From positions 460,125-524,124 of the forward strand of contig NMRA01000309.1 in assembly GCA_002633005.1 (NCBI GenBank): 64,000 bases of DNA, read 5' to 3'. Position numbers and translations under genes: made by a program. A model generated the notes under the pieces. The model was not told where the DNA came from. It saw nothing but the letters and a program-made list of their open reading frames with translations, and made no database searches. The DNA comes from Phoronis australis (taxonomy: Eukaryota; Animalia; Phoronida). Each line of letters starts with the position of its first letter. Position 1 is the stretch's first letter. Shown piece after piece: positions 1,768 to 36,580 of this stretch.

Positions 1768-2610
1768 ATGGCAAAAAAATCTTTTGGTAGTAAAACACTG
1801 GGCGAAGCACAAATGGGTCGTAAAGTCAGCATGAGTGAAGTGTCTTTGGAAACCAAGGAAAAGGTTTTCAGAGAACAACGGAAGCTACATAGGCGCCTGT
1901 CTCAAATTAATCAACAACAAATGCAGAGTAGAAAACACATGGACGCTCAACGAAAACAGCTAGAGTATGAGATGTACGGAAAGATTCTAAGGCGAACGAA
2001 GGATTTAGAAGATTTTGACAATTTGAAGGAACTGGAAAATCAAAGACGAGAAGCGAGACACACACGAAACGCTGCGTTGAGGAGTCCATTGCACACAGAA
2101 GATGTACTGAGATTGCAGGTGACGCTGAGGCCGAAAACCTCTAGTTATAATGCTATAAAAAAATCGTTAGATCGAGGGATTGGCCAAAGGACAAAAAGTT
2201 TTGTATTGCCTAGCGTAGAGGTGTGTACATCCGCTCAGATAGTGGATAGTATCATAAAAGAAAACAAACTCGATTTCATGATGAGCAACTCAGAATGCAG
2301 AAAAAAGGCCTGGAATGATTCCAGTTTGGCTCTGAAGCAATCTTTAAAGGTATTGGAAAGTTTGAGGAAAAGAGAGACAGTCGAAGCTATCGAAATTACT
2401 GAGACATCACATGCCGATACACCACGTTCTAAAATAAAAATTGACAGAAAATTAAGCGAAGGAATTAGAAAATTAAAAATGGAAGCTGACGCATTTATCA
2501 ACGCGGAAAAGGATCTTAATGGCGTCTATCCTTCGACTGAAAACCAGGGTGAAGAAAGAAAACGAAAATTGTCAACTGCAGCCGGATTACGCAAAGTAAG
2601 AATAGACTAG
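1768..2610 (+). CDS. Uncharacterised 280-aa K/R/E-rich coiled-coil protein, single coding exon (weak CCDC190-like N-terminus)
   Basis: Uninterrupted 843-bp ORF in AT-rich DNA; ATG context aaacATGG; helical segment EKVFREQRKLHRRLSQINQQQMQSRKHMDAQRKQLEYEM; AATAAA near 2807. The family resemblance is by eye only. Confidence 0.65.
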   Translation: MAKKSFGSKTLGEAQMGRKVSMSEVSLETKEKVFREQRKLHRRLSQINQQQMQSRKHMDAQRKQLEYEMYGKILRRTKDLEDFDNLKELENQRREARHTRNAALRSPLHTEDVLRLQVTLRPKTSSYNAIKKSLDRGIGQRTKSFVLPSVEVCTSAQIVDSIIKENKLDFMMSNSECRKKAWNDSSLALKQSLKVLESLRKRETVEAIEITETSHADTPRSKIKIDRKLSEGIRKLKMEADAFINAEKDLNGVYPSTENQGEERKRKLSTAAGLRKVRID

Positions 2611-2945
2611 TTCTTGTTAGACTGGTTGAACACGCAAAACAAATCGTATGAGTAACTTGCAATTCTCCTTCCTAATGTTTTCTAGCTCCACTATAAATTT
2701 CATATTGATTCTGTATCCGTAGTTATGGGGAGTGGGTGCGATGGGTGCGAAGTAGGCAAGAAAGCGTAAGGTCAGTTAATGACCATTTCACAATTACCCC
2801 CGTTGCAATAAAAAGTCATTACGGACATGGCATCTAGCTGTTTGCCGGTGACGAATCGTATTTATGGTGTTGTTTATTTTCCTCCGTCATATTAGGAATT
2901 TTATTAGCATCAAAAAGAACATTTTAAATTTTTACAAATGTAAGC

Positions 2946-3916
2946 ATCAGGTGTACCAAAAACGTTCCGAGATTCAACAGACTGTAACTTCACATGTGTG
3001 AAGACAAACGTTTCTACAATCATAGGTTTGTTATTGAAACAATAAGTATAATTACACAAAATTCGAGCTTTAAATTCACGAAAAATAAAATATCACAAAT
3101 GACTAAAGGTGAATTCATCACAGTTGCATTCAACACAATGATTTAATAATGAAAGATCTCTCAAACTTTCGCTTCCCAAGTGCTTTAAAGAACTCCCATG
3201 ACCTTTTAAACAACACTTTAACTTCACAAATGCGTCAATTATATAATAACGTGCTTCACTAAAATCTCACGTCGTCTCAAACTGGGCGTTTCTGATAATG
3301 TTTTCCACAAAACATGCCTCAGTTAATAACTGTCTTCTCTGTAGTCGTAACAAAGCAATTAACTGAGTCGACGGCAAGGCCTCACGGACAAACACAGCTT
3401 GGTGATGTTCATACATTTAGAACGTGAGTATCATGGGTGTGAAACAACATGACCACCGGACCCAAAACAGGACCACCGGTCTTACAAATGGGACTGACTC
3501 GCCATAAAACAGGACCTAGGGGGATTAACGGGTTAGAAAATGAGCCCGCTACATCTAAAAACATGACCGCCCCACAACAAAATATGGCCGCCGGGGATAG
3601 AAACACGACCACCCCATCCCTCAATTGTCATGACATGTAAAGAATTGAAAGCGAAAAGGAATAGGATGTATTGAATTGTTCAATGATATATGTATTTCCT
3701 CCATCGCAATTGCCTTTGTCGTATTTATTTTTGACCAACAGTCTTCAATTTGATGTTCTGTCAAAGCCTAATAAGTTAAGAATGCATTTTCCTAGAAGTT
3801 ATAAAAATAAACCCAATTTTATTTGTAGAAGTTTCAAAAGCACACGATCAAAGTTCAAAAGCGTTGGTGGAACAACCCTTTAAACCTTGGAACGTTTGTG
3901 TACAGTCACCCGATAT
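2946..3916. mobile_element. Degenerate non-autonomous DNA transposon (Tc1/mariner-like MITE)
   Basis: Imperfect terminal inverted repeats: atcaggtgtaccaaaaacgttccgag at the left and cttggaacgtttgtgtacagtcacccgat at the right. No transposase ORF. Confidence 0.4.
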
Positions 3917-6640
3917 AACAATTTATGTGACGTAAATTCTGAGATTTCCACAAATTTTATTAAGTTCTTTCATCAAGTGTTTATAGTTAAGGTCACATAA
4001 TTGTCTTTACCAGACTATTAGTTGGTCTTAGATTTTTTGTAAAATTGAGGCAGATTTAGATTTTTAGCCCAGCCGACGCACCCTCCTCTTCAACTCAAGT
4101 GAGTATTGATACATCAAAGAATCCAAACAGTTGTTTTAAGATTTATTGTTAGAATATCAAACAAAAGCTGTTTATTGTATAGCTCACACATGTCACTCAC
4201 TCTTGACTGGTGGCTGTTCCTCGGCAACTAATATTGCCTTATGATGACAATAATTTGGGGATTAGTAGGCGATTAGGAAGTGTAAATTTAGGAGCGCTGA
4301 CGACGAACTGAGCCTATGTAAAAGCAACCAGCAGAACTGATGCATTAAAAAAATCAGGTGAAAAGAGTTGGTTTCTAGAAATTCCCACTGCTTTTCAGCA
4401 TTTTCCTATATTATATATAAATATATATGTATGTATGTACGAATGTTTATATGTATTTGTGTATGTATATGTGTATGTATATATAGTTAACAGATGTGGC
4501 ATTACCCAAAAAGTTGCACTTTCATTTAATGCAACACGAAGGATAAAATATTTGTCCAAGTAGTACATTGTCCAAATATGGTGGTGAAGAGGCATATTTA
4601 ATAATGAAAATATTACTGGTGGTTCAAATCTTCATCGATACTAGAAGAGGATTACTTTTGCCCACACTGATGTCATCGACCAGTTCATGCAACACCCGGT
4701 TTGCCATAATTTTTTTATTTATATAATTTTATACACTGGGTACTTCATCATGATTTCTTGAAAAGGTTTCCGGCATATATCATTATCTTGAAAACTCTTT
4801 GAAAATTTGTTAGTTTTACCAAACCATCGTTCTTTCAAACGAGTCAGTCTCCAATTGCAAAGAAGCTCATAGGATTCTTTCAACTACAAAATTTTGCTGT
4901 ATGAAAGCTCACTATTATTTGAATAAACATGCGGTAATCCCGAATGCTTATTGTTACTTCCATCGCACTAAATAGTAAAATTAGAATTCTCGCACATTTC
5001 AGGTCTCAGTGGCAAGCACGGCTCAAAGTTCTTCACAGTGGAACGAGAAAAACGAATTCTCCAATTACGGCGCAAACACGCCATTCGACACCTATGATGT
5101 AAAGTCACGTGGCAAATCTCTTCGCCTCCGTCAGCAAATTTTTGCCAACAACAAGAAGTCGCTAATGCGAGCCACAGCACGTGCAATTATCTTCACACTG
5201 CCTTCGCGCAATAAGAAAAAAACACGCTCTCTTCAACATGGCGAGAAAGGCTTACAAACGGCTCATACGGTCATGCAAAACACAGCCCATCTACAAGAAC
5301 TGTCCTCATTGTCGCAGCCTGGAAATCTTGAAAGTTCTTTAAACATCCGCAAATGGATGTGTGAATAATTGACAAATTTGAAATTATGTCGAACAGGAAA
5401 TAGTCACTGCGAATAAACATCAGCGTTTTCAAGAAAAAATAGAGATGTATTGGTTGGAAGAAGTAAATGCCCGTTCAAGGAAAGTAATTCAGTTCATGGT
5501 CAGTTGAGGCTTTTCAATTGAAATTGTACTTCGATGCTGTTTAGCTGTCACTTTGGGGTTTAAAAACATTAACACGCTTATCGGATCTTAAATTGTTGGC
5601 GAACATGTCGGCAACTCAAGCAACAATTGATTCCATCACGGGTTCACCCTCCTAAGTTCTTCCGCAAACATAAAATGTTGTACGATTTCACAAAAACAGA
5701 GAGGCAATGATTCCATCGTCTGGCCTAATCCGTGAGTGACCGGGATGTAAATAAAATCAGGACAAGGATAGTCAAGGATATCATCATAGGGTCCCATCCA
5801 AGAACTGGGAATTATATCAAATGCTATACCATTAAAATCAGGAAAAGAAAACAACGCGATTCCATTGTCCATTGTCAGAGAGGAGATCCTGTTTTGCATT
5901 CCCACAAAAATTGTCTTCCGAATCAATTGCTCTAGCAAGTCTGTGCATGACAAAATTTTTCGAAGTTCTTGTCGTAGAATGTGTTATTGTATTTTAGCAT
6001 CTATTGATTTAGTCATCGTATTACACAAAGTTCACTTGCTGTTTACTGCCGTTTTCTCAGACAAGGGGATTTAATGCTTCCCAGAACTGTTTGTGAACAT
6101 ATAGTGCATTCCTTATTTTTACATGTTATTGGATTGGCTACTTCTTGTATATCTAGGCCTTCTCTGTATAATCCTTTCATTTGTATCTCATTCAGTAGCT
6201 ATAGTCATTACCATCATGTAACGTTTGCTATCTTCAATATACTACTCAAGACACGTCTCTTCTTGGTTTCCAACGAACCACCTCCGCGTACGCCACCAAT
6301 GTATCAATAGGCTACTTCCACATTTTCAAGTGAGCACAAACAAAATATATTTTTAAATAACGGACCTCTCTTAACCAAATTGTCCTGCGGGCCCAGCACT
6401 ACTAGTAGACAAACTTTAGAGAGGAAAGACGTAAGGTATGTTTTTTCATTTTCCCTTGGCGTCATGATTTTAACAACGCTGGTTCCCCGCGTGTCCGCTA
6501 CGGGGTAGATAACACGCAGGTATCAGGCAGCAGCAAGCGTTTTATCACTGGTTGATGTAACCTCGGCAGTCATTGGTTAGTTTCACAACAAAGAAAGAAA
6601 GTGACGGACTATGAACGATTTTTAGGCTTGTCATGCAAGT

Positions 6641-6804
6641 CAGTGGCGGGTTTAGAGGGGGGCCACGGGGGCCATGCTCCCCCAAAAAATATCCCAGATT
6701 CCATTTGGCAGTTCGGGAATGCGAATGCCTGAGGGGCAAAATCCTGACTAATAGTCTGCCCTGCCCCCCCCCCCCCCCAACTCAAAATCCTGGATCCGCC
6801 CATG
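6641..6804 (+). mobile_element. MITE family A copy
   Basis: cagtggcgggtttagaggggg...aaaatcctggatccgcccatg, flanked by a perfect 5-bp TSD CAAGT (6636-6640 / 6805-6809). Confidence 0.8.
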
Positions 6805-7105
6805 CAAGTGGCGTTAAAACAGACATATTTCGTTTCTGCAGTAATATTTAATAGCTGCGCCGGTTCTTGAGCACATACATGTACAAAAAATACACATCTG
6901 GCCAATCTAACCGTTGTGGTATTCATACTGTGTGAATACAGGACAGCAACGCAAACGAGTCAGCGACTGTAGCAAAATGCTCTAGGAAAAGGCATAACCA
7001 CAATTTTATGATTCACATTTCTTGAGCATGAATTTACTCGTTGTCCATCGTCATGCCAGTTTGTTTACGTAAAGCGTTATCTGTTGAGGACCGGCCAATC
7101 AGAAG

Positions 7106-7342
7106 CATGCGCGCACCAAGGGGGGGGGGTCGGGGGGCTCGACCCCCCCCCCACTTGGCGAAGTGGGCAAAAAGGTCCGCCCGAGAAAATGAGACAGTCC
7201 ACTAAACAAGCACAAATGCGCAATTCACATTGGTGCGCCCGTTTTTTTGTGTTTTTTTTAGTCCGCCGGCTATTTTGTTACCAAAAGGTCCACAACGATA
7301 GGAATTCGAGACCCTCCATATTGAAGGCTGGGTGCTCGCATG
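7106..7342. mobile_element. MITE (family B) with CATG termini and 5-bp TSD
   Basis: TIRs catgcgcgcacc / ggtgctcgcatg; perfect TSD AGAAG (7101-7105 / 7343-7347); internal G9...C9 hairpin. Confidence 0.7.
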
Positions 7343-8127
7343 AGAAGCGCCATGTAATAAAACTTCCCGAAGAAAATTAAATGATAAATGCGTACACTCG
7401 CCTCTACCAGCCTCTTACCGCCTCTAACCGCCTTCTACAAACCTTTACCCGCCTCTAAACGCATCTAACACTCAAGAGGCCCATTCTACAAAATAGTTAC
7501 GCATTACCCCCTGTTTGCAGGTATTCAAACGTTTTTTCACAATTACCTCATTCAAGGGCTTGCAGGTTTCACTTTACAGGACTTGGAATGACCAACTACA
7601 ACTATAGGAAAAACTTCCACGTGATCTGGTGATGTATTGTTCCACAAAATAATGAATAGGCTTGTGTGATAGAAATATTTCTTGTGTAGTAAAATTTAAC
7701 TGAAATAAACATTTTTGCATGAACAAAGTCAAAATAATGATGGAAATCAAATAAGAGGAAATCAAACCATAAATATGTAATCCTCTTAAAAGAAAATTCC
7801 GAGCCCTGGGTCCTGGCTTTAAGGCCACGCCCCTCAGCTTCACGTATAGGTGCAGGCGATTATCCATGGGCAGAACAGCTGCGATAAATGTGGGGCTATA
7901 GCACCCCTGTGGTGCACCGCTCATAGCCCATGGGTGGTGCAACTCTGAAAAAAGTGGGTGCTATAGCCAACTTAGCCCCCTATGGTGCGCCGCCCATGTT
8001 TCTCCTTAAGTGAACATGCATGAGCATTTGTCTGTTTGTTGGGACCCTTGTTACATCCTTTGTAACAAATATCAATGTTTAGGTCAACCATTTTCAACAA
8101 GTGGGTTTACCATTTTTATGAGATAAG

Positions 8128-12547: not shown

Positions 12548-13465
12548 ATAAGTGTCTCTCACATACTTATAAAATTAGTCGACTGATTCAAATTTGCGAG
12601 TTTCACATGCAGGGATGTGCCCCTCATTTCAGAAAAGGCACATGGTCAGCCATTCAATACAAGAGCATAGGCTACCCTAACCCACACATACATTTGTCCC
12701 CACATCTTAGGAAATGTAAGGGCAAGGATAGAGATGTCAATGCACTGCCTGTCACCAACACCAAAATTACCTGAATTACACAAAAATATAAGGCGGAAAT
12801 ATAAAAAAAAACAAGAATTTATTTGCCATTTAAGAAAGGAACAGTATTTTGTAAATTCCAGTTTTTAGGCACAGAAAAAAACACCCTAAGCTATAACTTA
12901 GTGGAACTGCAAGTAGGAGTCTATAAAATTACAAAAGGCACTACAATGAACTTGGTGATTCGTAGTCTCCCGCGATTGCATTGGGTAACACAGTCAATAA
13001 ACCATATATATGATGCAAGGATAATATATCACTTCAGCTTATAACAACTAGAGATGTCACAAATACAGAAACAAATCAACCACTGGCATACCACATACTT
13101 GGTAATCGTAATTGGCCAATACTACTAGAAGACCACACTAGTGGTAAAACTGCAGCTGTCGTTTCCTTGTTTTGTAGATCTCTGCGACTATTTGATGCAT
13201 CATTCTCAGACATAGTTATTAAGACATAGTGACCTTGATGCCAAATCCATTTATGCACAATTCCTTGAGGCACCATTCTCAGACAAAGTTGAACTAAGAT
13301 AAAATTCTAGATCATTCAAGTGCACTGGAATCAGTCACCAGTTCTAGAATTGCAGATTCCATGGTTATATTCAGGAGACACTATCAGTAACACAGATTAG
13401 TGGCGGTACATCCTAATGCGCCATGTCTTGTCTTGTAAATACCAGCGGTCTGAACCTTACAGCCG

Positions 13466-13797
13466 AAGTTATGTTGCTACAAGTACCTTTTGAGCACACA
13501 GAAACACATCTGGCAGCCATACATGTATTTCACACTTTCCAACTTAAAAAATACTCCAGCAATCAAGATTTTTCCAATGTGCCAGTTCAGTGATCAACAG
13601 ACCTCCAGTACATCCAATGTGTTTGAGGTCAAGTTATGTTGCTACAAGTACCTTTTGAGCACACAGAAACACATCTGGCGGCCATACATGTATTTCACAC
13701 TTTCCAACTTAAAAAATACTCCAGCAATCAAGATTTTTCCAATGTGCCAGTTCAGTGATAAACAGACCTCCAGTACATCCAATGTGTTTGAGGTCAA
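13466..13797. repeat. 165-bp tandem duplication (2 near-identical copies)
   Basis: aagttatgttgctacaagtacc... starts at 13466 and again at 13631, with only about 2 differences. Confidence 0.9.
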
Positions 13798-13845
13798 ATG
13801 GAGACTTATGAGAAGGTCACTTATCAGACTAACATCGAGATGAAG

Positions 13846-13997
13846 TGTTGTAGATGTGCTTCTGGTGAATTATATGAGCCTCTGTTAGCTACTCGCTAAC
13901 GGGCAATTGCCTATTAGCTGAATGGTTAGCACGTTTGCCGGTTTTATGGGGGTCGCTGGTTCGATCCCCAGGTCGGGTGATCTCGGCTATTACTACA
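13846..13997 (+). mobile_element. Solo LTR of a tRNA-promoter TRIM (Helenus-like)
   Basis: 152 bp, TGTTGTAG...TTACTACA termini; perfect 4-bp TSD GAAG (13842-13845 / 13998-14001); A box TAGCTGAATGG at 13915-13925; B box GGTTCGATCCC at 13958-13968; homologous to both LTRs at 15404-15917. Confidence 0.9.
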
Positions 13998-14462
13998 GAA
14001 GCATCACAGCTGGAGATGCGGGTGAGCACATTGCATTAAGCACTTGTGAACTGTCTCTACCCAATGACAAGAGACGTCAAGATGACTTAGACCAGACATA
14101 CGGGAACAATAAGCAGCAGTAAAACATCATTGGACTTTCTTGTTGATCCCTCCAATTGTTTTTGCAAACACTGTCTGAAACTTCAAAGAGTATGAAAAGT
14201 AACAATTCATAGTAACTCGAAAATATCTTTTGGTTGCCGAAAATCAAAGGTGCATAAATCACTTAACAAGATTAGAACTCCCTAATTCCTTCAAATGGCA
14301 ACTAAACCCTTGAACTTGCAGATAACGCGAACTACTTCCCACTAACAGGTAGATGTATCAGTATTGCAAATGGCTAAAGTAAAAAATGTTGTGTCTTTCA
14401 CAGGAATGTTCCTTTGGTTGAAACGAGTAATCACCTTCGGTTTCTGAACAAGTTCACCAGAT

Positions 14463-14816
14463 TTATTTCACAGTTGCCATTGGGTTCCTCAAAACCAGAA
14501 TAACAGAATCGCCTCGCAAAAACATTTTTGAAATGTAACGGTCTTTGTTCACAGGCTTCGATTTCTTTTTGCCCTTTCCAGTCTTTGGAACTTCGGTCCA
14601 CATTTCTTTCACGTTCTCCAAAACCATGTTACAATGCCTGTCAAAAGCTTTCACTCGACCAAGAAGCTTCTTGTTATTTCTGCAGTTTATGAGAACCTGC
14701 GTGTTGTTTTTGACAGAGTGTGTTAAAACTGACAAAGGTCCAGTATTAAATTCTTCCTGCTCCCGTTGCGCGAGCTCTTCTTGTGTCATTTCACCTTTGG
14801 GCTTCTGAAGAGCCAT
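14463..14816 (-). CDS. SNRPD2: Small nuclear ribonucleoprotein Sm D2 (117 aa), intronless CDS
   Basis: [31 protein letters not shown]...[35 protein letters not shown]...[21 protein letters not shown] is nearly identical to metazoan SmD2. The likely ATG is 14816, not the 14924 start of the ORF track. Confidence 0.97.
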
Positions 14817-15173
14817 GATTGCTTTGATTTTTGAAGATAAAACTTGGATGGTACAATCAGAACCGGTTTCTGACAATGGCGGCAAGTATAACGCCAACGG
14901 TGCGTGATATGTCGTAAAAGTCAACTCATTTTACCTCTATAATATAACTAACGCAAAATGTATAATCAGCATTTAAGATTATTCAAATGTTACTCTTCAT
15001 GAAACGTATAATTAACAATAATAGATATCTTCAAATTTTTACTCCAGTAAATTCTTACGACACTCTATGTTTACCTATCCCTTGGCGACACTTCCGCAAT
15101 CAGCTCCGTGAAAAATGTAGCAGCTGCTAACTAGTTTTCTTTCTCTCGTCAAAACTGTTCAGTCAACTCGGTC
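14817..15173. promoter_or_regulatory. Bidirectional promoter / 5' UTR region between SNRPD2 and DUSP22
   Basis: Divergent ATGs are only 357 bp apart; YY1-like aatggcggc near 14875 and ETS-like acttccg near 15090. Confidence 0.55.
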
Positions 15174-18100
15174 ATGGGAAATGGAATGAACAAGGTGGAC
15201 TTTTCTGGGGTATTCTTACCCTCTGCATCTGCTTATGTATAATTTCTGGCAAAAGTCACATGTCTAAGTTAGTTTAGACAAGGCACTACTACTTTCCGAC
15301 CTTGACCTTGGGAAGTCTCGACTGCAGGATTGAGCTCAATATTGAATGCGACCACATGGTTTTGGTTTGATTTTGTTGCCACACGACAACAATACAACAT
15401 AACTGTAGTAATAACCAAGATTACCCAATCCGGGAATCGAACCAGCTACCCCATGAAACCAGCGAACTTGCTAACCATTCAGCTAATAGGCAATTGCCAG
15501 TTAGCGTATAGCTAACAGAGGCTCATATGATTCACCGAAGCACATCTACAATATTTCCCCCTTTCCTACAGAAGGTGAACAACAGGATGTCTCCCATACA
15601 TATCATCAACGTCCTTGCTACCTTTACCACCACAACATCGGTGAAAACAAGGTAGTCTCTCATACAGGTCCTTGACTCCTGGAACTTTCCATGCGCGCCG
15701 TCCCGAGGTCTGCGGGAACTAGTTGGCAGTGCTTCATCGGTAGATCATCCGTTTGCTAACTACGCCATTTGCAGTAATAGCCGAGATTACCCAACCCCGG
15801 AATCGAACTAGCGACCCCCATAAAACCGGCGAGTGTGCTAACCATTCAGCTAATAGGCAATTGCCCGTTACCAAGTAGCAGAGGCTCATATGATTCACCG
15901 GAAGCACATCTACAACACAACTATCGAATTTTACCTTGCCCTTGGAAGTAGACAGTGACCACCGTCTCTTTTTGAATTACAGACTGTGAGTGTGAAGCTT
16001 CTATAGGCGCCTCAAACACCAGAAACTTTTCAGGGAATTATGTCTCACACTGGTTAAAAAATCAAAGTCACGTTGTCTCTTAGTAGATGAGGTTGCGTAT
16101 TTTTAACAAGAAACCTTTCAGAAAGAATTCACAACTGCTGGAGTATTAGTTCAAATTGGAAGGCTTTAAAAACATTAACAACCAACATATGTGTGTCTAC
16201 GTATGCATGGAAGGTACTTATAAAAATATGTCTTGGATGGTTTAGCCATGCAGGTTGGCACGTAATTTTCAGGAAAAATCTTGCGTAAATGGCTCTATAG
16301 GGTGGACAACCAGCTTTGATAGCCCATTTCAGATAATGATCAGCATCTACTGGCTGACAAGGCAGTCAAGGGATTGCGGGTGCTACCCCTTTGCTGCAAA
16401 ATTGCTTCAAACTGAATAACGTCACGTGTTATTTCGCTATTGATTGCCCATAAGCGGCTCAACCCTTCTGTAATAATAGTTCTTGGAGTATGAGCAGTCA
16501 CTTAACCTGTATTCTCAGTAAATTGTCACAAATTAAATGCTTACTTAAAGACAATTTGTTGTTCGTAAACTATCAGAAAATTGCCAAAGTGGCAAGTAGG
16601 CAAGTAACAAAGTGAAATATGTGGATATTAACATCAATCTAGTTCTGTATTTTAAAACGACTGATATAAAGCTGAGCTTTTGATTTACACCATGTACTGG
16701 TATAATATTGGATACTTGTTCCTTACCCAGATGAGAAGTGATTTCTTGGTGTACAAAGTACTGACAGTTTGTTATTCCTTGAGACCATGCTCGGCCCAAA
16801 AAATGACACACTGTGACAAGCTTACTAGTTGGTGCTTATTAAGCCCTCGAACCATTTCCAGTTTGACTAAAGGACATTTGGAGACCAATTTCGTAAACTG
16901 AAAGGGTTTAAATCAAAATGTTAAGTTTTTGTGATGTAGGACAGGTTTTTATCCGCTTTAAACAGTAGACTGCAGCACTAAATTGCCCTCATGAGTACAT
17001 TTGTTACTTGGCAAAATAAATTTCGCCAAGTATGTTGCTCTGTCACTAAGTTTGTTTTTTTACTTGGCGGAATTCTTCCGCCAAGTATGTTGGTCTGACA
17101 GCAAGTTTTTTTTTTTTGTTCGCTCTCTACAGGTCGCAATTTTGGTCCGATTTTCACGAAATTTGCACACAACGTGTAGATCGGGAACTGCTAGAATGCT
17201 ATTGTTTTTGGTCATGATCGGATACAAAATGGCGGACATGGCGGCCATTTTGTATCCGATTTCACAGTCAAATACTCGTAGAGGCCGCATTTTTCGACCT
17301 ACATGGCTGAAAATCTGTACCAATATACTAGAACGCATGTGCTACAATTGTGCAGAAAATCATTGACTTCCGGTTAAAGATGGCGGAAATATTGGACGTG
17401 GGCGAGACCATCAGTTTAGATAGAATATTGAACGGGCTTTCAGAAGATGTTTTCCATTTTTCGCTAGGACGTCTACTTCTCGAGTTATTTGAGAGTTTCT
17501 GATAACGCTGTTCCTTTGTTGAGCGCTCTTGCTGCATTGACGTTGGTTTATCTTCTATTTAAGTAGACTGTAGCCTATTTCTTATTGATTTATGACATCT
17601 AAGTTCGTCATATGAATGTTGTGATGTTGTTCATCATCGCCACCACCATCATCATATTCGTCATCATCTTCGTCATCATCTCCGTCGTTGTCTTCTCCGT
17701 TAATTTCGCCAAGTGTCGCTCAAGACTGTAGCCTTTTTCTTACTGATTTCGGACTTCTACGTTCGTCATGTGTATGTTATTATTACTTCTTTTCTTCATC
17801 CTCGCCACCATCGTCGTCATATTCGTCATCTCCGTCATCATCTTTATCGTCATCTTGTTGGTTAATTTCGCCAAGTTTCGCTCCTCGGAGCGCTTTCATT
17901 TTATTTTTTTTCAGATTTTCCCTGACATTTGTTTTCTTTTTTTTCAGATTCTCCCTGGTCTTTTTATTGGTAATTTTAGAGATGCAAAAGACTTAACACA
18001 GCTGGAAGAAAACAATATAACTCATGTGCTGTCAATTCATGACAATGCAAAGCCAATTCACACAGTATGTCTTTTGTATGAATTCCATGTACCGGGGTAC

Positions 18101-33915: not shown

Positions 33916-34858
33916 TCACTCTTGTGCTTCGGAAAATCCCGGTAGCCGTCAAACTTGATCTACGCAAATACCCGAGGATAGACGGGATGTCCCGAATGAT
34001 ATTGGAGTTGAATATTTTTGCAAGATGTTTGAAGTTGAATTGAATTAATTTTGAAAAATATTTTAAAACCCGTTGGATATTACAAATATTCATGAATAGA
34101 TGTAGATTTCAAGCTTTACAAATTATGCAATTGACAACTGACGCCTGACGGTGACCTAAAATAGGTTTATTTACTTCCGCATTGGAACGCCAGTGAAACT
34201 CCACCCGCGTGAGCTGTGTAGTTTCGAGTGTGGTTTTCATTCTCAAAACCTTGTTGAAGTTTTTCGAAAACCTCCAAGTGACCACCAGTATCAAACAGGC
34301 AGTCCATTCTACGTGAATGCTTAAGAATGGTGTCACAATTGTTAACAATTTGAAGAACAACCAGTCAGCTGAATGTGACCTCTGCCGTTCACCTCTAGTG
34401 CCTGTGGATATGCCAGCTGCAAGTGCTCCTTTCCACATCTTACCTTCTGCCGGTGTTTCGTTGCCAGTCTACCCTAATCTAATAGCATATCAGCGCTTAA
34501 GCTGTGACGTTCTGGGAGACATTTAAAGTGGAAGCTTATTGTATCCTGGAGCGTGTACAACAATTTCATGGTTCAACACAGCTTAGTGTTATAGTTCCTT
34601 CAATTTTAAATGTTTTTTGTAATCAGAAGAGAACTATTTGGTTAAACCTATGGCAATTGTGGTGAACACTGAAATGGCCCATCGTGAATTCCTCTTGGGA
34701 GTAATTCTTTCAGTTATCATGTCTGACAATTAATCTGTGAACTGTTGACAAGACATACAGATTTCACCTGTATTGAAGACTCGATCAGTGTTTTCCTGTG
34801 CTGTGGTTCATAAAACCATCCAGTTTGCCTGAGCACTGGCATTTGGAACCCAAGAAGA

Positions 34859-36580
34859 ATGGCGAATCATACACCGATGCAGAGCTATCGTCAGAACTAT
34901 TGCAAACTGTGCATGACAGGATTGCTTGGCTGTAGGTGGCACAGATATAAACAGTCAACCTTACACTTTACCAAAGCAGATGTGTTTTGGTTACTCTTCC
35001 TCATGATCACAGCATGCTTTGTCACCTGCTGGTTCTACTTTTGGCTCATTGCCGAGAATGATCAAGATGATTTCCACTGGTTCTTATACAATGAGCTTGA
35101 AGTCTGGTATTCCTGGCACGCCGTGCTCCTTGGAGTCACTACTGCTGTGTTCATTTACTGCGCGCTATTGTTACTTCTGACTGTCTGTCATGTTATCATT
35201 GGACATCAAGTATTTATTCACATGGGCCATAGAATAATGCTTTGTGTTATCTTAATTGGATGTGTTGCCACAATAATTGTCATATGGTACATGTGGCCAC
35301 AGGAATTTGCTGCTTTGAGTATTGCTTTCCAGATGCATGGGCCATTTATACATATCGGTCTTGTTATCTTTTTGACTGCTTTATTATGGGTATTCATTGA
35401 ACAGTGGCATAAGATCCGGCGAGTCTACATCAAAATCTTATGTGTGGTACTTTACATTGGAATAATGATACCAGTTTATGTTATGCCATTCGTGTTGCAT
35501 TCCCCGTGTGTGACACAGAACTTACCACCACGGCCACAACTGTTTGCTCATAGAGGATCATCAGCAATAGCACCGGAGAATACACTGGCGTCATTTGAAG
35601 ACAGTATCAGGTATGCTGATGGAATTGAAAGTGACGTCAGAATTAGCTGGGATGGAGTGCCCTTCATGTTTCATGATTTGACGCTTAAAAGAACCTCTAA
35701 TGTAGCTAAAATATTTCCTAGTTTTCAAAATATGAGGCCCGAACTTTTCAATATGAGTGATCTGCAGAAACTGGATGTTGGATCTTGGTTTTTGGACAGT
35801 GATCCCTTTGGAACTGTGGGAAGTTTGCCAGAAAGTCGAAGAAGTATCCTTCGTCAACAAACTATTCCTACACTTGAACAGGTCCTTAGCTTGATCAATG
35901 GTACAGATATAAAGTTTCTAGTGGACTTAATTGGCCCTCCCACTGGCCACCCATATGAATCAAACTTCTCAAAAAAATGTTTTGGTATTTTTATCAATTC
36001 TTCTTTGCCACAAGACCATTTTTACATCCAAGATTACATTTCGAAATTTACCGACATGAATTTCACATTCACCCTTCGAGGAAAAGTGGATTTGAGCCGT
36101 TTGGAAAGGCTGCATATTCATTCCATAAATGCATGGTTCACAGAATTGAGCAAGGATGATATTTTGTTGTACTTAAACCATAACATTTCTGTCAACATTT
36201 ACACTGTAAACACACGCTGGATGTTTTCCTATTATTGGTGTCTTGGCGTAACATCAGTTGCTTCCGACAAGAGTCACATGCTATCCAGGGACACGTCACC
36301 CTTGTGGATAATGACGCCTACTGTTTATAAAACAGTGTGGATCATCATAGACATCTTATCTGTTTTGGCTATAATCAGCACGTTTACCTACCCACAAGTG
36401 CGTTTGCAAAAAACCCATGAGCCAGCCGAGTTGACCATCCAAGCATTGGGAAGAAGCCGTGGTGAGCCTAAAGATCCTCAACTTCTGGACTCCAGTAAGG
36501 ACACAGATATGGAAGATATGGAGACTACTGAGATCGGTCACCACAATAGTGCACATGACAATTACGAATCTTGCCAATGA
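34859..36580 (+). CDS. GDPD5: Multi-pass membrane glycerophosphodiester phosphodiesterase (GDE2/GDE3/GDE6 = GDPD5/2/4 clade), 573 aa, intronless CDS
   Basis: N-terminal CMTGLLGCRWHRYKQ; several TM helices; SPC...LPPRPQLFAHRG..IAPENTLASF; GIESDVRISWDGVPFMFHD; IPTLEQVL; YTVNTRWMFSYYWCLGV; C-terminal TM. The exact vertebrate paralogue is uncertain. Confidence 0.9.
   Translation: MANHTPMQSYRQNYCKLCMTGLLGCRWHRYKQSTLHFTKADVFWLLFLMITACFVTCWFYFWLIAENDQDDFHWFLYNELEVWYSWHAVLLGVTTAVFIYCALLLLLTVCHVIIGHQVFIHMGHRIMLCVILIGCVATIIVIWYMWPQEFAALSIAFQMHGPFIHIGLVIFLTALLWVFIEQWHKIRRVYIKILCVVLYIGIMIPVYVMPFVLHSPCVTQNLPPRPQLFAHRGSSAIAPENTLASFEDSIRYADGIESDVRISWDGVPFMFHDLTLKRTSNVAKIFPSFQNMRPELFNMSDLQKLDVGSWFLDSDPFGTVGSLPESRRSILRQQTIPTLEQVLSLINGTDIKFLVDLIGPPTGHPYESNFSKKCFGIFINSSLPQDHFYIQDYISKFTDMNFTFTLRGKVDLSRLERLHIHSINAWFTELSKDDILLYLNHNISVNIYTVNTRWMFSYYWCLGVTSVASDKSHMLSRDTSPLWIMTPTVYKTVWIIIDILSVLAIISTFTYPQVRLQKTHEPAELTIQALGRSRGEPKDPQLLDSSKDTDMEDMETTEIGHHNSAHDNYESCQ

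Follow-up and report, generated by a model that had tools for sequence, protein, structure and literature searches.

The 514-bp element at positions 15404–15917 of the window (the whole 64,000-nt stretch of Phoronis australis DNA analysed here) is a decayed full-length copy of a TRIM, a miniature LTR retrotransposon. We hold with good confidence that its family is a high-copy, non-coding TRIM of the Helenus type, likely transcribed by RNA polymerase III (Pol III) from the A and B boxes of its 5' LTR, and that a Ty3/Gypsy element likely copies and integrates it in trans. Helenus having been published in 2024, the element represents a new family and not a new class. The features of the element and its surroundings are as follows.

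14463–14813, − strand: SNRPD2 (Sm D2) reading frame, intronless, head to head with DUSP22
15174–15194, + strand: coding part of exon 1 of the host gene DUSP22; intron 1 is 15195–17947
15400–15403, no strand: left copy of the target-site duplication (TSD), TAAC on the + strand, matching the right copy at 3/4 letters
15404–15917, − strand: whole element, 514 bp, antisense within intron 1 of the DUSP22-like gene
15918–15921, no strand: right copy of the TSD, CAAC on the + strand
15917–15770, − strand: 5' LTR, 148 bp, TG...CA, its upstream hairpin damaged by a 4-bp deletion
15856–15865, − strand: self-complementary 10-mer GGCAATTGCC of the 5' LTR, directly preceding the A box; a 12-mer with a G-U end
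15842–15852, − strand: A box of the 5' LTR, TAGCTGAATGG, start 15852
15822–15825, − strand: T4 run of the 5' LTR, between the A and B boxes
15800–15808, − strand: B box of the 5' LTR, GTTCGATTC, start 15808
15754–15767, − strand: primer-binding site (PBS) for tRNA-Ser, starting 2 nt past the 5' LTR
15554–15769, − strand: non-coding interior, 216 bp
15566–15554, − strand: polypurine tract (PPT), abutting the 3' LTR
15553–15404, − strand: 3' LTR, 150 bp, TA...CA
15500–15516 and 15489–15498, − strand: hairpin and palindrome of the 3' LTR
15475–15485, − strand: A box of the 3' LTR (TAGCTGAATGG, start 15485)
15434–15442, − strand: B box of the 3' LTR (GTTCGATTC, start 15442)

The element had been predicted to lie in DUSP22 intron 1, and this was borne out: RNA reads join 15194 to 17948, and the peptide of the second exon matches DUSP22 best (E=8e-13). 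RNA ends of SNRPD2 and DUSP22 were placed at 14886 (−) and 15104 (+), about 220 bp apart. Both Helenus insertions in the window, this one and a solo LTR described below, are <1 kb from the SNRPD2/DUSP22 promoter, each antisense to its host transcript. The Sm D2 encoded here is 94% identical to Sm D2 of Lingula anatina, from which the host is distinct. The best named protein matches were to annelids, molluscs, nemerteans and brachiopods, none of them close, and place the host probably among the lophotrochozoans. A fragment of a second, unrelated high-copy repeat was noted at about 15949–16076, ~30 bp from the 5' LTR; depth there in sequencing run X1 is 1,982–7,492 against 48, with loose ends at 16035, 16075 and 16076. 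Farther away, 34814–36580 (+) holds an uninterrupted frame of ~573 codons for a GDPD5/GDPD2-like protein, possibly a retrogene. No relative of this frame exceeds about 40% identity over most of its length; the best matches, at 35–40%, are mostly annelid, mollusc and nemertean, with priapulid and frog also present.

Direct reading of the − strand confirmed the LTR–PBS–interior–PPT–LTR layout, the repeats of ~150 bp, the TG...CA ends and the TA start of the 3' LTR. By size (514 bp, <1000 bp), by its LTR pair of 148/150 bp and by its non-coding content, the element is a TRIM; coding capacity is nil, the longest stop-free frame in the whole element being 70 codons. Between the two LTRs identity is 87.7% (BLAST E=2e-41 within the window); they differ by 12 transitions and 6 transversions, a K2P distance of 0.136, and their alignment has 6 gap columns. 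Each LTR carries an A and a B box at tRNA spacing, as had been proposed, with starts 44 nt apart in the 5' LTR and 42 nt apart in the 3' LTR. The A box is located 66–70 nt inside the LTR, not at the element's 5' end. Between the boxes lies a T4 run in the 5' LTR and in the solo LTR, and TTTC in the 3' LTR. The PBS matches tRNA-Ser at 12/14 positions in this copy and at 14/14 in the loose-end consensus of run X8 (RNA). Neither the whole element nor its interior folds more than usual (z −1.36 and 0.52).

The description of the LTRs as tRNA-derived stood in part. ARAGORN found 0 tRNA genes across the window and Rfam gave 0 matches at E≤1 on 15200–16100, hence no tRNA, 5S or ribozyme family there. 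Because neither program calls a tRNA, the label rests on the A and B boxes, the distance between them and a resemblance to Helenus LTRs.

A solo LTR of the same family, overlooked in the original prediction, lies nearby, antisense within the continuously transcribed 3' region of SNRPD2.

13846–13997, + strand: solo LTR, 152 bp, flanked by GAAG/GAAG
13884–13900, + strand: hairpin of the solo LTR
13902–13911, + strand: palindrome of the solo LTR
13915–13925, + strand: A box of the solo LTR
13942–13945, + strand: T4 run of the solo LTR
about 13958–13968, + strand: B box of the solo LTR

It is 90.5% and 88.7% identical to the element's two LTRs, and its TSD is perfect (GAAG, 4/4; chance 0.56%). 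An X5 contig skips exactly 156 nt here (152 + 4), with 4 letters fitting either side, and is the empty allele of the solo LTR. We rejected splicing as the source of the skip, none of the five possible cut positions giving GT-AG or CT-AC. Support for the empty allele is this one contig; the joint is not among the rows listed for the other seven runs. The empty allele fixes the length of the TSD at 4 bp and means that at least one other haplotype lacks the insertion. The SNRPD2 3' region also contains a tandem duplication of ~165 bp at about 13465–13800, recognised from a 165-nt step back in X3 and in two X6 reads, with loose ends at 13631 in 76 X6 reads and in X3 and X5 contigs. This duplication may vary between haplotypes.

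At the full copy the TSD is imperfect, GTTG against GTTA in element sense, and contigs back both flanks. A match of at least 3/4 occurs by chance in 6% of random pairs from the window, so taken by itself the 15404–15917 copy argues only weakly for a TSD of 4 bp. The predicted TSD therefore stands as to its length, which the solo LTR with its empty allele fixes, while the 15404–15917 copy itself offers only 3/4.

Evidence for the family came from public sequencing runs of the same organism (X1–X8), whose contigs or reads were placed on the window. X1 yielded 1871 contigs placed on 2.6 kb and X2 yielded 933. Summed depth in X1, which is not a copy number, was 195,881 over the solo LTR, 12,884–16,416 over the interior and 48 over unique flanks; by this depth LTRs are roughly ten times commoner than interiors. 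The element thus belongs to a large, high-copy family. In X2, 41 and 48 contigs depart from the LTR precisely at its first and last base, and their low agreement beyond these ends (~0.4) points to many different flanks. Run X3, labelled 'DNA?', has depth that follows transcripts (131 on SNRPD2, 0 at 14905–15078, 57 on DUSP22 exon 1), with 3–5 on intron contigs, and behaves as RNA.

X1, X2, X4, X6 and X7 each have a purine-tract consensus immediately before the LTR. In X8 the position before the LTR is dominated by one abundant host transcript, and the tract appears in 12 reads that depart 2 nt farther from the LTR. Past the other end of the LTR, the X8 consensus is AA followed by TGGCGTAGTCGGCA, which is the start of a human tRNA-Ser antisense template given in PMC3299991; the X7 consensus differs from TGGCGTAGTCGGCA by one letter. 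The 14-nt PBS match is scored against that human template. Contigs of X2 and X4 pass from the end of one LTR back into the next, one of them with 248 letters between. The family has interior length variants: the PPT-proximal interior (15554–15690) varies, and some contigs hold a much shorter segment. The layout thus recurs in other copies, both the LTR–PBS and the PPT–LTR junctions having been found, and the loss of layout or of a constant TSD elsewhere, which the original prediction had named as grounds for abandoning it, was not observed.

Within the family the boxes are well kept. The complete table of solo-LTR variants at ≥15% of reads has 18 rows, of which none falls in the A box or the T4 run, and the variant listed for the B box (13966) concerns an unconstrained letter. 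By these reads the boxes are conserved in the family, and the second ground named against the original prediction, boxes not conserved, was not observed either. Hairpin variants comprise one in the loop, one that preserves a G-U pair and one insertion confined to X8. For the palindrome a single row is listed (13904), mostly on one strand of X8 and at 1.5% of X2 depth.

These results bear on two other readings of the element's structure. One takes the repeats as two independent tRNA-derived SINE copies that landed 216 bp apart by chance. Each repeat does have a SINE-like A/B head, and a lone copy is present in the window. We consider this reading next to impossible: the repeats have TG...CA ends and no tail, a PBS and a PPT stand at the exact junctions in many other copies, contigs run from LTR through interior to LTR, and the duplication at the empty site is exactly 4 bp. 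An identity with SINE2 elements fails on the junction reads, on an A box 66–70 nt inside the repeat and on the TG...CA ends, PBS and PPT. The other reading concerns only history. With a 12% LTR difference and a 3/4 TSD, the 15404–15917 copy may be recombinant, a chimera of two family members that arose through template switching or recombination and not a single old insertion. The LTRs resemble each other less (87.7%) than each resembles the unlinked solo LTR (90.5% and 88.7%), and the TSD has its one mismatch. Independent decay of an old copy would be expected to give the same identities, however, and 3/4 of the TSD letters do match (6% by chance). We regard a chimeric origin as rather improbable, and it would leave the element's class unchanged.

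We compared the family with Helenus (TRIMp3), which comprises TRIMs with tRNA-like LTRs and, in animals, 4-bp TSDs (Kojima 2024, Biology 13:119, PMC10886601). The reference to this group in the original prediction was correct. The family has the features of animal Helenus: <1 kb and non-coding, with A and B boxes in two LTRs, a PBS complementary to a tRNA 3' end, a PPT, a 4-bp TSD and solo LTRs, and without a functional tRNA. Box A (TRGCY...YGG) is present in 3/3 window LTRs and the GGTTC form of box B in 2/3, the 5' LTR having AGTTC. The PBS, matched to the human tRNA-Ser template, lies just past the 5' LTR and the PPT adjoins the 3' LTR. The 4-bp TSD was seen at the two sites examined (4/4 at the solo LTR, 3/4 at the full copy), and repetitiveness is evident in full-length copies and solo LTRs. 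At 150/216/514 bp for LTR, interior and whole, its size is near those of the Ser-primed mytilid families Helenus-2_MyGa (144/226/514), Helenus-2_LimFor (141/251/533) and Helenus-2_MoPh (156/268/580). Its PBS begins TGGCGTAGT, whereas the Ser primer sites in Fig. S2 of PMC10886601 are two other types.

The suggestion that the family might be new also held up, no match being found among the published animal Helenus consensus sequences searched (supplement parts 5–9, by eye). Seven window motifs gave 0 matches in the whole PMC10886601 supplement, where a control motif gave 3 and where line breaks can hide a match. Our literature search found no further paper devoted to Helenus, TRIMp3 or LTR-11_DR beyond brief mentions of the name.

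Other TRIMs are less similar. In Cassandra of plants and Ajax of nemerteans, likewise TRIMs, the LTR also contains an internal promoter for Pol III, but that promoter is 5S-derived, and Ajax has 5-bp TSDs and uses tRNA-Leu (PMC10886601). We rejected identity with either, there being no 5S match in Rfam at E≤1 and the boxes being of tRNA type. The biv-TRIM of Satovic et al. (2019) is also a lophotrochozoan TRIM; as described in PMC6934838, it differs in having no canonical PBS and in carrying its inverted repeats in the interior, not in the LTR.

Pol III transcription, like mobilisation by Gypsy, is likely in this family and putative in Helenus generally. Type 2 Pol III promoters are expected to start transcription 7–16 nt upstream of the A box. 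In the life cycle that we propose, Pol III would start about 7–16 nt before the A box of the 5' LTR, read the PBS, interior and PPT, and then terminate within the 3' LTR; the product would be an RNA of about 400 nt whose two ends carry a short repeat. The Gag, RT, RNase H and integrase of a helper would package this RNA, prime on tRNA-Ser and insert the copy, and recombination between LTRs would leave solo LTRs such as 13846–13997. The palindrome would lie at or across the 5' end of the RNA, and whole in its 3' LTR part. There the 10–12-mer would most likely pair two RNAs (dimerisation) or both ends of one RNA; this is the least certain step. We modelled the dimerisation role on Ty3, whose RNA dimerises in vitro via a short palindrome near its 5' end, according to PMC11381356. 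The PBS is already explained by tRNA-Ser.

The helper is likely a Gypsy element, by analogy from the 4-bp TSD and from PMC10886601, where the PBSs of animal Helenus are said to resemble Gypsy PBSs. Kojima lists no Gypsy partner for Ser-primed families and writes that the means by which a TRIM stays dependent on its helper are not known (PMC10886601). The 64-kb window contains no RT-like frame.

How a Pol III transcript could read through the 5' LTR yet stop in the 3' LTR is unaddressed in PMC10886601. The T4 run between the boxes of the 5' LTR is conserved, so Pol III must read through it. Short U runs in human cells terminate Pol III transcription efficiently only where RNA structure is close by, as reported in bioRxiv 2020.09.11.294140, and PMC7215508 reports tandem read-through for Cassandra. 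When U3 is included, as in the 3' LTR, the predicted stem finishes 0–3 nt short of the T run in both copies that retain T4. Only weak structure is predicted for transcripts that begin 10 nt before the A box; those that begin 16 nt before it regain pairing beside the T run in two of the three copies. Compared with shuffles, the folding from U3 to the T run scored z −2.3 for the solo LTR (only one stronger), −1.64 for the 3' LTR and −0.02 for the 5' LTR. Variants at 13863, 13936 and 13939 preserve the stem, and that at 13934 breaks an outer pair. Most published module-bearing families, by eye, have no T4 at that place. Hairpin-assisted termination is thus a speculative, family-specific model: the z-scores disagree, pairing returns with an earlier start, and this T4 is absent from most other families.

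A separate question is whether the genomic RNA of the same TRIM is made by Pol II instead, through host read-through or a U3 promoter, with the tRNA-like unit kept as an RNA structure or a TFIIIC site. Family reads come from both strands (X6 interior, 35–47 sense against 23–25 antisense), as fits passive transcription inside host genes, and three RNA runs gave no pile-up of molecule starts or ends within an LTR, in libraries that may not retain short non-polyadenylated RNA. Both-strand reads and the lack of sharp ends agree with Pol II, as do the conserved T4 inside the 5' LTR unit, the T4–T6 that by eye directly follows the B box in many published Helenus LTRs and Kojima's statement that the Helenus promoter is without experimental validation (PMC10886601). 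Yet the boxes are the best-kept part while the cloverleaf has been lost, the interior T4 at 15644–15647 belongs to this copy and not to the family (at 15646, 99% of X1 depth has something else), and Cassandra is reported to be Pol III-transcribed (Kalendar 2008, as cited in PMC10886601). The absence of the interior T4 from other copies is as expected under selection against Pol III stop signals, at one site only. We therefore judge Pol II synthesis of the genomic RNA to be a minority prospect and retain transcription by Pol III as the likely course.

Going towards the A box, the LTR of this family has first a hairpin (GTTAGC-5 nt-GCTAAC) and then the self-complementary GGCAATTGCC, a module that by eye extends well beyond this family. 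As a 12-mer, GGCAATTGCC has a predicted self-duplex energy of −19.6 kcal/mol but forms a hairpin of only −4.2 kcal/mol. Perfect self-complementary 10-mers occur at 0.19% of window positions, or 0.78% with G-U allowed. Self-complementary or inverted 8–12-mers were found at the same place in 54/76 non-insect animal Helenus LTRs (PMC10886601 Data S1, counted by eye, not by script; insect, fungal and plant families left out). By group these were 18/18 chordate, 33/51 bivalve, 3/3 nemertean, 0/3 Lingula and 0/1 ctenophore. Families are related, so the 54 module-bearing LTRs are not 54 independent events; six of them are readable only as odd-length repeats with one unpaired centre and one contains an ambiguity code. 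Module sequences vary by lineage (GGGTTAACCC, GAAGTACTTC, GGAGATCTCC, AGGCCATGGTCT and GAGCCGGCTC, for example), and G-U pairs are often used; differing sequences with frequent G-U pairs point to pairing as RNA. Most of the stretches are complementary through the centre, which a hairpin loop does not need and a two-strand duplex does. The main text of PMC10886601 contains no 'palindrom', 'hairpin' or 'dimer', and its Figure 2 alignment may show the region.

Module-bearing LTRs include bivalve Helenus-1_CVi, -1_CGi and -2_PiNo, nemertean Helenus-1_LiLo, ostariophysan LTR-11_DR and coelacanth LTR2_Lch. The window family shares with these a self-complementary 8–12-mer directly 5' of the A box and, in most, a short hairpin upstream. 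It differs in its palindrome sequence and in its hairpin arms (TTAGC/GCTAA, against the common CTAGC/GCTAG), and by eye it bears no likeness to them in U3, U5 or interior. In Helenus-1_LiLo and Helenus-1_CGi (PMC10886601 Data S1) we noted by eye that the pre-hairpin U3 can also pair with the tRNA-like unit on its D-arm side; such pairing would enclose the module in a multi-branch fold.

We also queried metagenome contigs. An exact 20-nt family motif gave 0 matches, and a degenerate module pattern gave 11 loci, five of which (L003, L005, L008, L010 and L011) are Helenus-type LTRs; the other six, having no downstream boxes, were set aside as chance matches. A profile of the three window LTRs scored three of the loci at E=0.0011, 0.015 and 0.056, the loci having been pre-selected by the pattern. 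Across the three window LTRs and five loci, 94.1% of 68 cells were paired and 2/9 pairs were changed on both sides; shuffles reached as high a count in 3/500 cases. This test favours the structure but is partly circular, some of the pairs having been imposed by the search pattern, and it counts for little. By eye, L005 resembles Helenus-2_CVi, L008, L010 and L011 resemble Helenus-1_CVi, and L003 resembles Helenus-4_PeMa. The contigs with these five loci are probably animal host DNA.

On sequence comparison, the module suggests one shared lineage and a candidate RNA dimerisation or end-formation signal. It would argue for a common origin of most non-insect animal Helenus, where the published view has separate origins in molluscs and fish (PMC10886601). 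We put forward only tentatively, and doubt somewhat, a joint reading in which the module is a conserved RNA element that unites coelacanth, sturgeon, carp-like fish, bivalve and nemertean families and this one in a single ancient or horizontally spread lineage; it would dimerise a gene-less RNA made by Pol III for packaging in Gypsy particles, and a U3-dependent stem by the T4 run would stop Pol III in the 3' LTR and not in the 5' LTR.

To what is known the element adds one family, a Ser primer type not described before and, probably, a further host lineage. Presence/absence polymorphism of the solo LTR, inside a housekeeping transcript, suggests that the family moved during the history of the species. 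The module is a concrete candidate for a cis-signal common to deuterostome and lophotrochozoan families, and may be the one new point.
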